4,165 nucleotides of DNA from a virus. Lineage: Duplodnaviria; Heunggongvirae; Uroviricota; Caudoviricetes. Each line of letters begins with the position of its first letter. Position 1 is the stretch's first letter. The position numbers and the translations under genes were made by a program. Location of the stretch: IMG/VR virus record IMGVR_UViG_2534681736_000020, one strand, 5' to 3'. Shown piece after piece: positions 1,040 to 3,822 of this stretch. The notes under the pieces are model-generated. The model worked only from the letters and a program-made list of their open reading frames with translations. It was not told the DNA's origin and made no database searches.

Positions 1040-2002
1040 TCACCCCCTGAATCCCGGCGGTATTTCAGTGTCCGGTTCAGAAATGTGATTCACGCAACGC
1101 TGCGCGGGCGAACGCCCCAGGCGGATAACCAGTTCATCCCATTTTTCCCGGAGTTTTGCCGGACTCATGATGTTTTTTACCCAGAACGAATCCCGCTGGA
1201 GACGCCCAAACATTTCACAAATTTGTCTGTGAGTTCTGCCATCCAGCATCCGCATTGTCCGCACGTCATTGGCCCATGCAGTCCAGTTGGGTTCTTTCGG
1301 TCTCGTGATCTCGCCATCATCGCTGGCCGCCTGCTCGTAAAGACTCACGATTCGTCCCCAGATCCACTGTGCGCACACCAAATCTTCCTGACTTCCCCAC
1401 TGGCGTTTTTTCGCACTGAACACAACCGCGTCAGGGTGTCGGGTTAAAAAATTCTGTTCAGCCGTCTGCGGGTCCGGTTGCGAAGCGTCCGGACAAGAAG
1501 ATCTTTTATCTGACGGATCAGGTTTTAATACTGACGGATTGGGGTCAATCATCGCCCCCCTAATCGGCAGTTTGTTATCAACAGTTGATCCATCAAAATT
1601 TGACGGGTCAACCGTTGAGGGGGCAATATTTGACGGGTCAACTGTTAACGGGTCATTTTTTGCCGGGCTAATTTTTCTTTTCGGTTTATATGACTCACGC
1701 GCCGCCGCAGCAGCTGCTTCGAGTTTTTCCACATTAAGCCGATAGATATTGCTTACATTACGCCCACCGACCTTACGCTCTTCCTTCGTCAGCCAGCCCT
1801 CTTTCGCCAGTTCTGCAATAGCCGATTTCACTGTGGATTCACTTCTTGCACCGATCTGACGCCGGATAGTTTCAATGGCAGGCCATGACACGCCCTCGTC
1901 ATTGCTGTAGTCTGCAAGACGGGCCATAACCGCCACCCTGGATAAGATCATGCCGGTGAAGGCGCACCCTTCCCAGACAAGACCATGAAGCTTGCTGCTC
2001 AT
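1040..2002 (-). CDS. Phage replication initiation protein (lambda O-like replisome organiser; N-terminal HTH domain, C-terminal helicase-loader-interaction domain)
   Basis: The track ORF 1040..2017 begins at GTG; the first ATG is at 2002..2000 (MSSKLHGLVWEG...) with a GGGGG run 4 nt upstream, giving 320 aa. The N-terminal HTH-like segment (VSWPAIETIRRQIGARSESTVKSAIAELAKEGWL) is followed by an Ala-rich and Pro/Ser/Thr/Asp repeat linker encoded by the iteron array, then a Trp-rich C-terminal domain. Position immediately upstream of the DnaC-like gene fits an O-type initiator. Confidence 0.8.
   Translation of the reverse strand: MSSKLHGLVWEGCAFTGMILSRVAVMARLADYSNDEGVSWPAIETIRRQIGARSESTVKSAIAELAKEGWLTKEERKVGGRNVSNIYRLNVEKLEAAAAAARESYKPKRKISPAKNDPLTVDPSNIAPSTVDPSNFDGSTVDNKLPIRGAMIDPNPSVLKPDPSDKRSSCPDASQPDPQTAEQNFLTRHPDAVVFSAKKRQWGSQEDLVCAQWIWGRIVSLYEQAASDDGEITRPKEPNWTAWANDVRTMRMLDGRTHRQICEMFGRLQRDSFWVKNIMSPAKLREKWDELVIRLGRSPAQRCVNHISEPDTEIPPGFRG
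1585..1671. repeat. Iteron array inside the O-like gene (candidate origin of replication): six 12-bp units at 15-bp spacing, forming three 30-bp higher-order repeats
   Basis: Directly visible units: TTGATCCATCAA (1585), TTGACGGGTCAA (1600), TTGAGGGGGCAA (1615), TTGACGGGTCAA (1630), TTAACGGGTCAT (1645), TTGCCGGGCTAA (1660). Each is a near-palindrome TTGAC-GG-GTCAA. TTTGACGGGTCAAC is exactly repeated at 1599..1612 and 1629..1642. A moderately AT-rich stretch follows at 1669..1695 (CTAATTTTTCTTTTCGGTTTATATGAC). The architecture is analogous to lambda ori-lambda within gene O. Confidence 0.6.
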
Positions 2003-2846: not shown

Positions 2847-3218
2847 ATGCAAAAAAAAGAAATTCGCCGTTTACGTCTCAAGGAGTGGTTTAAAGATAAA
2901 ACTCTGCCACCCAAAGAGAAGAGCTACCTATCTCAACTAATGAGTGGGAGAGCCTCGTTTGGAGAAAAGGCTGCCAGAAGAATAGAGCAAACATACGGGA
3001 TGCCGGAAGGGTATCTGGATGCGGAATACGCAGAACAACCGGGGGGTTCTCCACCACATGCAGGGTTAACGTCTAATCAACTGGAATTATTGCAGATTTT
3101 TTCAGCCTTCCCTGAGGATGAGCAACGCCAGATAATCAGCGAGTTAAAGCAGAAAAAAGAATCAATGGAAGATCTCATAGCGAGATGGATTGCGGCGCAA
3201 AAATGCCGCCGCGCCTGA
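2847..3218 (+). CDS. paaR2: CI-type phage repressor-like HTH regulator, 123 aa; probable PaaR2-like regulator of the downstream toxin-antitoxin pair
   Basis: The track ORF 2784..3218 starts at GTG inside an operator repeat; the first ATG is at 2847, 7 nt after the GATAAT -10, with no Shine-Dalgarno, so probably leaderless. HTH motif SYLSQLMSGRASFGEKAARRIEQTYGMPEGYLD. The C-terminal LELLQIFSAFPEDEQRQIISEL resembles the DicA/CI-like C-terminal region. Size and gene order match my recollection of PaaR2 (symbol from recall, unverified). Confidence 0.75.
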   Translation: MQKKEIRRLRLKEWFKDKTLPPKEKSYLSQLMSGRASFGEKAARRIEQTYGMPEGYLDAEYAEQPGGSPPHAGLTSNQLELLQIFSAFPEDEQRQIISELKQKKESMEDLIARWIAAQKCRRA

Positions 3219-3238: not shown

Positions 3239-3430
3239 ATGAATAGAGCCCTTTCACCAATGGTTTCTGAATTTGAAACCATTGAACAAGAAAACAGTTA
3301 CAACGAATGGCTGCGTGCGAAAGTAGCAACGAGCCTTGCAGATCCGCGCCCAGCAATTCCCCATGACGAAGTTGAGCGCAGAATGGCAGAACGCTTTGCT
3401 AAGATGCGCAAGGAACGGAGCAAGCAGTAA
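3239..3430 (+). CDS. paaA2: Small antitoxin, 63 aa, of a ParE-type toxin-antitoxin pair (PaaA2-like)
   Basis: The track ORF 3185..3430 has an N-terminal extension overlapping the repressor 3' end. The ATG at 3239 has a strong GGAGG Shine-Dalgarno at 3229..3233 with a 5-nt spacer. The product MNRALSPMVSEFETIEQENSYNEWLRAKVATSLADPRPAIPHDEVERRMAERFAKMRKERSKQ is small and charged, and its stop lies 1 nt before the toxin ATG. Matches my recollection of the 63-aa PaaA2 of E. coli O157:H7. Confidence 0.75.
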   Translation: MNRALSPMVSEFETIEQENSYNEWLRAKVATSLADPRPAIPHDEVERRMAERFAKMRKERSKQ

Positions 3431-3431
3431 A

Positions 3432-3710
3432 ATGTTACCCGTGTTATGGCTTGAAAGCGCAGATACCGACCTAGATGATATAACTAGTTATATTGCTCGT
3501 TTCGACATAGATGCGGCTGAACGCTTATGGCAGCGATTAAGGGGTTGTGTGCTGCCGTTATCCGAACATCCGTATTTATACCCACCAAGCGACAGAGTAC
3601 CTGGCTTGCGTGAGATTGTAGCCCACCCTAACTATATAATTCTATACCGCGTAACAACATCAAGCGTTGAAGTAGTAAACGTGATCCACGCAAGACGCCA
3701 GTTTCCCTAA
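3432..3710 (+). CDS. parE2: ParE/RelE-superfamily toxin, 92 aa (ParE2-like)
   Basis: The track ORF 3336..3710 includes an upstream in-frame extension; the real start is most likely ATG 3432, 1 nt after the antitoxin stop. Product MLPVLWLESADTDLDDITSYIARFDIDAAERLWQRLRGCVLPLSEHPYLYPPSDRVPGLREIVAHPNYIILYRVTTSSVEVVNVIHARRQFP has typical ParE-family size and features. Symbol is from recall of the paaR2-paaA2-parE2 module. Confidence 0.8.
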   Translation: MLPVLWLESADTDLDDITSYIARFDIDAAERLWQRLRGCVLPLSEHPYLYPPSDRVPGLREIVAHPNYIILYRVTTSSVEVVNVIHARRQFP

Positions 3711-3728: not shown

Positions 3729-3775
3729 ACATAACAACCGCAACGACTTTATCAAAAGCGTTGTGTTTGTTATGT
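3729..3775 (+). other. Long imperfect inverted repeat (17-bp arms, 13-nt loop) just downstream of the toxin stop; possible terminator or processing/recognition structure
   Basis: ACATAACAACCGCAACG (3729..3745) pairs with CGTTGTGTTTGTTATGT (3759..3775), with one mismatch and one G-U as RNA. The T-rich GGTTTAGTTTTTA follows only after a CCCGC gap, so this is not a canonical intrinsic terminator. Confidence 0.3.
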
Positions 3776-3777
3776 CC

Positions 3778-3822
3778 CGCGGTTTAGTTTTTACTTGACT
3801 TAAGTTTAATGTTTATTAAACT
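3778..3822 (+). promoter_or_regulatory. PL-like promoter with overlapping palindromic operator, mirroring the PR-like module
   Basis: -35 TTGACT 3794..3799, 16-bp spacer, -10 TAAACT 3816..3821. Perfect palindrome AGTTTAAT-GTTT-ATTAAACT at 3802..3821. Upstream repeat-like GTTTAGTTTTT at 3779..3789. TACTTGACTTAA at 3791..3802 is the reverse complement of TTAAGTCAAGTA at 2799..2810. Confidence 0.4.

Follow-up and report, generated by a model that had tools for sequence, protein, structure and literature searches.

Iterons specific to each phage lie within the initiator genes of lambda, the Shiga toxin (Stx) phages, P22 and L (PMC7466680, PMC8022706). In lambda, dimers of the O protein bind the iterons and assemble an O-some beside an AT-rich tract (PMC7466680). 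The origin itself, ori-lambda, consists of four iterons and an AT-rich tract in the middle of gene O in lambda and phage 21, and six iterons are present in the Stx phages 933W and P27 (PMC7466680). In the P22-like phages the iterons lie in gene 18, with four repeats of ~20 bp in P22 and six imprecise 11-bp repeats, TGTCCAACGGA, forming the predicted origin of L (PMC8022706). The specificity of lambdoid initiators is set by the N-terminal half of the protein together with the origin (PMC8022706, PMC7466680). Here we analyse a stretch of 4165 bases from the viral record IMGVR_UViG_2534681736_000020 (hereafter the window), a lambdoid prophage whose O-like initiator gene (1040-2002, minus strand, 320 amino acids (aa)) contains an array of short palindromic repeats. 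We consider it probable that this array is the iteron part of the prophage replication origin, placed inside the linker-coding segment of its own initiator gene. This reading follows from the position of the array, from selection on it as DNA, from its co-inheritance with the N-terminal domain of the initiator, from a lambda-O-like C-terminal domain and from the DnaC/IstB-like gene that comes next.

The repeat array inside the initiator gene

The initiator gene is 100% identical to a sequence in the chromosome of E. coli O157:H7 strain FRIK944, where the RefSeq coding sequence (WP_000095670.1) has the same ends as the open reading frame (ORF) in the window. Six units of the type TTGAC-NN-GTCAA begin at 1585, 1600, 1615, 1630, 1645 and 1660, at a strict 15-bp spacing. 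On the plus strand they read TTGATCCATCAA (1585), TTGACGGGTCAA (1600 and 1630), TTGAGGGGGCAA (1615), TTAACGGGTCAT (1645) and TTGCCGGGCTAA (1660). Five of the six match TTGACNNGTCAA with ≤2 mismatches; the 1660 unit is weak, with 3. Across the window there are 8 such matches to TTGACNNGTCAA where 2.08 are expected, a number reached by none of 200 shuffles, and a repeat search of the whole window returned five copies at spacings of 15, 15, 15 and 15 as the sole direct-repeat family. Tandem Repeats Finder reports a period of 15 at 1578-1655 (5.2 copies, 68% matches) and a period of 30 at 1578-1646 (2.3 copies, 79% matches). A 14-nucleotide (nt) exact repeat, TTTGACGGGTCAAC, occurs at 1599-1612 and 1629-1642.

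We compared this array with those of 52 loci from more than 20 enterobacterial genera, whose N-terminal domains are 57-78% identical, together with several phages and 80 near-identical prophage copies. A 15-nt periodic array follows immediately after the N-terminal domain in all full-length relatives, with the family-wide core TGA-N4-TCA. A preliminary description of this DNA had listed the six units at 15-bp spacing and the 14-bp repeat, and all of them are present where it placed them. The description had also given the unit as TTGAC-GG-GTCAA with a 30-bp period. The inverted-repeat type holds, but the shorter core is what the family shares, and the 30-bp super-period, although found in the window, is confined to the window's clade; Edwardsiella relatives show a 45-bp super-period. 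The 80 prophage copies vary within the array itself. Most of them carry a better unit at 1615-1626, TTGAGGGGTCAA (IDPST), one base from the TTGAGGGGGCAA (IAPST) of the window, and a few lack one whole 15-nt unit.

The array is longer than the 1585-1671 first assigned to it. The six units lie there, but in one 15-bp register the full array spans 11 unit lengths at 1508-1672, adding degenerate units and a good unit, CTGACGGATCAG, at 1510-1521 that contains a TGA-N4-TCA match at 1511-1520. An extra unit at 1537-1548 is 3 nt out of register. The block under DNA-level constraint is larger still, covering codons 111-177 (~1472-1672) as delimited by third-codon-position information and by the boundary at which C-terminal domains are swapped, and we propose this block as the whole origin region. 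Its promoter-distal end is a recombination module boundary. We also noted a perfect TGAC-NN-GTCA palindrome, TGACACGTCA, at 1033-1042, which overlaps both the stop codon of the initiator and the DnaC-like start codon. A relative with 88.7% DNA identity across the initiator gene (L004) does not conserve it, and it is probably due to chance.

On the minus strand, which is the gene strand, the array reads as 5-codon units encoding ISPAK, NDPLT, VDPSN, IAPST, VDPSN, FDGST and VDNKL. It encodes approximately codons 111-165, with the best units at aa 116-140 (gene nt 346-420). These codons fall inside a linker (aa 109-178) that is predicted to be disordered (pLDDT, the per-residue model score, 31-45) in an AlphaFold2 model of the initiator built on 40 homologues, in agreement with the earlier proposal that the array encodes the repeat linker of the initiator itself. 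The placement is that of ori-lambda, where dyad-symmetric repeats in the initiator gene likewise encode the linker between N-terminal DNA-binding and C-terminal domains. A phage 21 record in which the lambda-type origin is annotated places the four iterons at gene nt 349-434 (aa 117-145), directly behind the Phage_rep_O domain (aa 22-115); a strongly AT-rich tract comes next.

Both flanks of the array are the least stable 30-mers of the replication genes. The gene-proximal flank (1668-1697, 73% AT) encodes KPKRKIS and is found in the closest relatives only. The AT-richer stretch noted earlier at 1669-1695 is real, although modest, and since it is unconserved beyond those closest relatives its role as an unwinding element is doubtful. 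The gene-distal flank (1495-1535; 70% AT at 1501-1530) lies within the conserved block GATCCGTCAGATAAAAGATCTTCTTGT, as seen in the stability profile and in the third-position conservation (columns 192-211), and belongs to a family-wide conserved DNA block (GAT CCG TCA GAT AAA ... TCT TGT). It is an alternative candidate for the unwinding element and is on the same side of the iterons as the AT-rich tract of lambda. An oriC-like 13-mer within it, GATCTTTTATCTG at 1500-1512 (2 mismatches to GATCTnTTnTTTT), was dropped as 35 of 200 shuffles gave an equal number of matches. Dam sites are not enriched, with 17 GATC in the window where 15.5 are expected.

Selection on DNA in a coding linker

Tandem repeats in a coding region could be the mere DNA shadow of the peptide, here a repetitive, Pro/Ser/Asp-rich flexible linker spread by in-frame tandem duplication, with the DNA itself serving no purpose. 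A period divisible by three, a predicted disordered linker built of pentapeptide repeats, and copy numbers that change by whole 15-nt units between close relatives would all fit such an origin. However, conservation is highest at the synonymous sites, and the amino acids vary. The encoded peptides are diverse (IDPSN, IDPPT, VEGST, SDASK, SDTSK and FEPSK, with SERSE and FEHPK in the relative L142), and T-GA-N4-TCA-A is kept throughout, so that peptides as different as DPS, EGS and SERSE share one DNA core.

We counted codon usage in 319 units from 52 distinct linkers. Serine at the fourth codon of the unit is encoded by TCA in 88% of units, compared with 13.5% of serines elsewhere in the same genes, and the other serine position of the unit is almost always TCT across genera. 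Lysine is encoded by AAA in all 171 of 171 units, compared with 60% elsewhere in the same genes. The first codon of the unit ends in T in 75% of units regardless of the amino acid. Additionally, units that are reverse complements of each other occur (GAC CCC TCA and GAG GGG TCA), so both orientations are present; such pairs have no meaning at the peptide level and are sensible for DNA only.

The same pattern is seen when information is measured at each codon position in a codon alignment of 51 genes. Mean third-position information rises from 0.64 bit in the N-terminal domain to 1.32 bit in the linker (aa 111-177) and falls to 0.51 bit beyond it; the linker differs from the N-terminal domain with p = 2e-12 (Mann-Whitney). 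In the linker, codon positions 1 and 2 show lower conservation than they do in the N-terminal domain. The third position is the best conserved of the three in 14 of 58 linker columns, compared with 1 of 96 columns of the N-terminal domain. Because the linker is predicted to be disordered, little constraint is expected there at the protein level. The motif TGAYNNRTCA occurs at 13.8 per kb in the linker and at 0.07 per kb in the rest of the loci (46 loci), a difference of ~190-fold, and 99 of 166 spacings between adjacent sites are exactly 15. These comparisons indicate that the array is selected as DNA and not as peptide. A pure shadow of the linker sequence is largely refuted by the codon analysis, and we assign it only a very small probability.

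An antisense gene overlapping the array offers no rescue for that explanation. The only open antisense frame (ORF 1539-1745, plus strand) has wobble positions that coincide with those of the sense frame, leaving the conservation unexplained, and it is open because the units are palindromic with a period divisible by three. In the Klebsiella phage ST101-KPC2phi6.3 (L003, 2290-3469), the annotation splits the initiator gene, calls its last third alone 'replication protein O' and places two antisense 'hypothetical proteins' over the remaining part, array included. The stop-free antisense frame generated by palindromic repeats probably misleads gene callers.

Selection on nucleotides could also act through a structure in RNA or single-stranded DNA, such as an early-transcript hairpin with an effect on translation or stability, or a cruciform acting as a hotspot for recombination where the modules join. 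Folded as single-stranded DNA, the 201-nt stretch outperforms 200 of 200 shuffles (z = -3.66), an imperfect inverted repeat of 33 nt spans 1580-1646, and the mosaic boundary adjoins the constrained block. The folding excess, however, is automatic for palindromic units present in both orientations. Single units form no hairpin, with a loop of just 2 nt, and a search of Rfam gave no match. The unit core and the 15-bp phase are what is conserved, not long-range pairs, and both copy number and unit order vary among relatives. We therefore regard a structural role as very improbable. Another candidate, the FNR/CRP-type site (TTGAT-N4-ATCAA), was rejected since the half-sites TTGAC and GTCAA are 2 bp apart in all units, not 4.

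A co-inherited initiator domain and array

The array is flanked by two predicted domains of the initiator. The N-terminal winged-helix domain (aa 1-104; 1691-2002, minus strand) is modelled as H-H-H-H-E-E-H with pLDDT of 71-86, and Pfam HTH_36, at aa 25-71, is the only Pfam match of the protein. Lambda-type O matches a different family, Phage_rep_O (PF04492), at 5.7e-36. Foldseek returned weak matches of the N-terminal domain to winged-helix regulators of the MarR, PadR and ArsR types, with E-values of 5e-3 or worse; no specific initiator relative was recovered beside these generic regulators, and a sequence search of solved structures with this domain gave no match. By analogy with lambda O, we presume that it is the origin-binding domain. 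The C-terminal helical domain (1040-1471, minus strand; helices at aa 178-297 in the model) is related to that of lambda-type O, as BLASTP aligns initiator aa 153-300 with O aa 145-277 at 34% identity (E 2e-25) and tblastn of the initiator matches O of lambda, 21, 434 and 933W. It is presumed, again by analogy, to contact the helicase loader. For the C-terminal tail (aa 300-320, ...EPDTEIPPGFRG; 1040-1102), the search of solved structures gave a weak match to the C terminus of the primosomal protein DnaT (E ~0.01). The 'primosomal protein I' labels on relatives may stem from this match, which also hints at a docking peptide in common.

The N-terminal domain and the array keep together while the rest of the module changes. 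They are joined to a lambda-O-type C-terminal domain in the window, PhiR49_1 and L142, to a Phg_2220_C-type domain in others (e.g. L014) and to a DnaT-type domain in L144. The genes beside them are DnaC-like, lambda P or primase-helicase: in L142 the lambda-O-type domain is accompanied by lambda P, and in L143 another C-terminal domain is followed by a Toprim/AAA_25 primase-helicase gene. The swap point is directly after a conserved QPD (aa 177, ~1472 in the window), where third-position conservation stops. Conversely, E. coli prophages that share the C-terminal domain of the window (up to 1507 by megablast) and have an unrelated N-terminal domain carry other repeats, ATyGGkTCAAAA. By sequence comparison, the N-terminal domain and the array behave as a single co-inherited unit, and with four different downstream arrangements among the window, L142, L143, L144 and L014 they are a compact example of domain-level mosaicism in phage initiators. 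Units differ between clades, as TTGAC-CC-GTCAA, TCTGAC-NCN-TCAAAA and, in L142, TGAACGTTCA.

This combination is widespread. Of 5426 complete E. coli genomes, 2232 gave megablast matches to the initiator gene, and in 1515 of these the match covers ≥80% of the gene length. Prophages from more than 20 enterobacterial genera carry the N-terminal domain with its array, as do phages such as SfII, SfIV and phiP27; the domain is also encoded by phage YeP1. In two E. coli chromosomes (L056 and L059, 1501-1734), the first 79 aa of the family are fused in frame to unrelated sequence, giving a product of 456 aa. The fusion is reminiscent of YmfN, a fusion protein of the defective prophage e14, and is presumably a deletion remnant without the array and the remaining replication module.

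DNA-level constraint alone does not specify the selected function, and the units could instead be bound, by the initiator or by some other protein of phage or host, for the purpose of control while replication starts elsewhere. Autoregulation, a roadblock to early rightward transcription, titration or copy control, and exclusion of related phages are possible roles. The array lacks a clear AT-rich unwinding element, and cloned origin iterons of lambda do inhibit related phages (PMC3349717, PMC4488673). However, the 4.1-kb immunity and replication region revealed no second repeat array and no further origin candidate, and the position of the array equals that of the lambda origin almost codon for codon. 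The array also stays tied to the N-terminal domain whichever C-terminal domain and whichever loader or helicase gene accompany them, as expected of an origin and its specificity domain. Control without initiation is less economical given the lack of another origin candidate and this co-inheritance, and we judge it quite unlikely, although control and origin roles can coexist.

The preliminary description had put the array forward as a candidate replication origin. DNA-level constraint, a lambda-like position and co-inheritance with the N-terminal domain all support that proposal, with binding by the initiator and firing of the origin predicted from the analogy to lambda. The array is most likely an uncharacterised case of the lambda arrangement with an unusual site geometry. 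The best units lie at nearly the same codons as the iterons of lambda-type O, the C-terminal domains are homologous and a helicase-loader gene comes next. Unlike ori-lambda, the N-terminal family is HTH_36 rather than Phage_rep_O, the units are of 10-12 bp every 15 bp rather than 18-19 bp every 20-24 bp, and there are more of them, 6 good and further degenerate units that extend over as much as 165 bp and occur in either orientation. A weak AT-rich tract and a DnaC/IstB-like partner in place of lambda P are further differences. A recognition mode distinct from that of lambda, as suggested earlier, is reasonable in view of the different domain family and of the shorter, more closely spaced dyads.

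The P22-like phages offer a second comparison. As in P22 and L, the initiator type carries its own short repeats in the coding region, and the origin of L was also predicted from sequence (PMC8022706). The repeats and initiators differ in sequence, and the partner in P22 and L is the DnaB-type helicase gp12, not a DnaC-like loader; the description of the phage L origin did not include a codon-level test of the kind applied here.

Theta-replicating plasmids are a third. Plasmid iterons (RepA, RepE, pi) typically lie outside the rep gene as direct repeats of 17-22 bp that share one orientation and are spaced by about two helical turns. The analogy is to a winged-helix initiator that would act on tandem short repeats beside an easily melted region. 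In contrast to plasmid iterons, the units here are palindromic, of 10-12 bp at a 15-bp period, in either orientation and inside the gene, and neither a Pfam search nor a search of solved structures revealed a sequence relationship to the RepA, RepE or pi initiators.

Proposed initiation mechanism and prophage context

If the array is the iteron part of an origin, initiation could proceed as follows. Transcription from the early rightward promoter would yield the O-like protein, whose N-terminal winged-helix domain would bind the dyad-symmetric 10-12-bp units (core TGA-N4-TCA; here TTGAC-NN-GTCAA), probably as dimers. Units would be occupied every 15 bp over ~90-165 bp, a period of ~1.4 helical turns, so that neighbouring sites would be on near-opposite faces of the helix and alternate sites near the same face. 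The resulting multi-protein complex would distort the DNA and open a neighbouring stretch that melts easily (1495-1535 or 1668-1697). Through its lambda-O-like C-terminal domain, the initiator would then bring in the DnaC-like loader encoded by the next gene, along with DnaB, the helicase of the host. The dimer stoichiometry, unwinding, loader recruitment and binding by the N-terminal domain are drawn by analogy with lambda.

The origin complex may also be of another kind than the lambda O-some. With 10-12-bp dyads at 15-bp intervals and in either orientation, TTGA/TCAA half-sites come every 7-8 bp, so a filament is conceivable. It is possible, though somewhat doubtful, that the winged-helix domains form such a near-continuous filament over ~165 bp with alternating faces.

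Several observations weigh against the origin reading. Foldseek gave no match for the N-terminal domain at E ≤0.001, and BLASTP detected no similarity between this domain and the origin-binding domain of lambda O. Both flanks of the array are short and, at 70-73% AT, far below the lambda tract, and the one at 1668-1697 is not conserved in relatives beyond the close clade. Literature searches for the motif and for an origin of the HTH_36-type module found nothing specific; apparently the origin of this module has never been defined before. The host strain has many partly defective prophages, and a neighbouring gene is frameshifted, so the origin may be out of use in this prophage copy. Finally, the relatives are not phylogenetically independent, and slippage or gene conversion can homogenise arrays, which may have inflated some counts; kinship and homogenisation, however, cannot make wobble positions better conserved than the coding positions of the same codons.

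The genes around the initiator are those of an early rightward operon and an immunity region. The Cro/YdaS-like gene (2447-2749) and the YdaT-like gene (2025-2450) belong to the early rightward operon on the minus strand. The initiator gene is part of the same operon, as is, directly downstream of it on the minus strand, the AAA+ gene at 293-1033 (Pfam IstB_IS21 2.7e-19, Bac_DnaA 7e-7). Its counterpart in related phages is annotated as a DnaC-like helicase loader, and its product is presumed, from this similarity, to be the helicase loader of the replication module. A search of 1000-2700 found no internal promoter or terminator in the initiator gene.

On the plus strand, a small gene in the repressor position (2847-3218) is directly followed, within the immunity region, by a PaaA2-type antitoxin (63 aa) and a ParE-type toxin (92 aa) at 3239-3710, a pair labelled relB and RelE/ParE in the matching O157:H7 chromosome. 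The region that separates the divergent Cro/YdaS-like and repressor-position genes has operator-like repeats GTTTAGTGTTT at 2760, 2779 and 2818, and these recur downstream of the toxin-antitoxin pair at 3782 and 3804 (region 3782-3814). A 24-nt inverted copy also pairs 2786-2809 with 3798-3821. Together, 2760-2828 and 3782-3814 look like an OR/OL-like operator pair that flanks the repressor gene and the toxin-antitoxin cassette. Just past the ParE stop codon, 3729-3775 contains a 22-nt inverted repeat with a 3-nt gap and 82% complementarity, possibly a terminator or a protein-binding palindrome.

A definition of this origin at the sequence level provides a concrete target for studies of prophage induction and replication in O157:H7 and a basis for minimal replicons. 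The variation between prophage copies, in the base change at 1615 and in the loss of a unit, could have a bearing on origin strength. The sequence-level definition would also lead to better annotation, as several records have spurious antisense genes or split initiator genes at the array. Conceptually, the array extends the textbook lambda arrangement and does not change it, and it is a clean case of a DNA signal overriding codon and amino-acid choice in a disordered linker. If the filament proposal were true, the sequence of the initiator linker would follow a DNA code rather than the needs of protein function across an enterobacterial prophage family.

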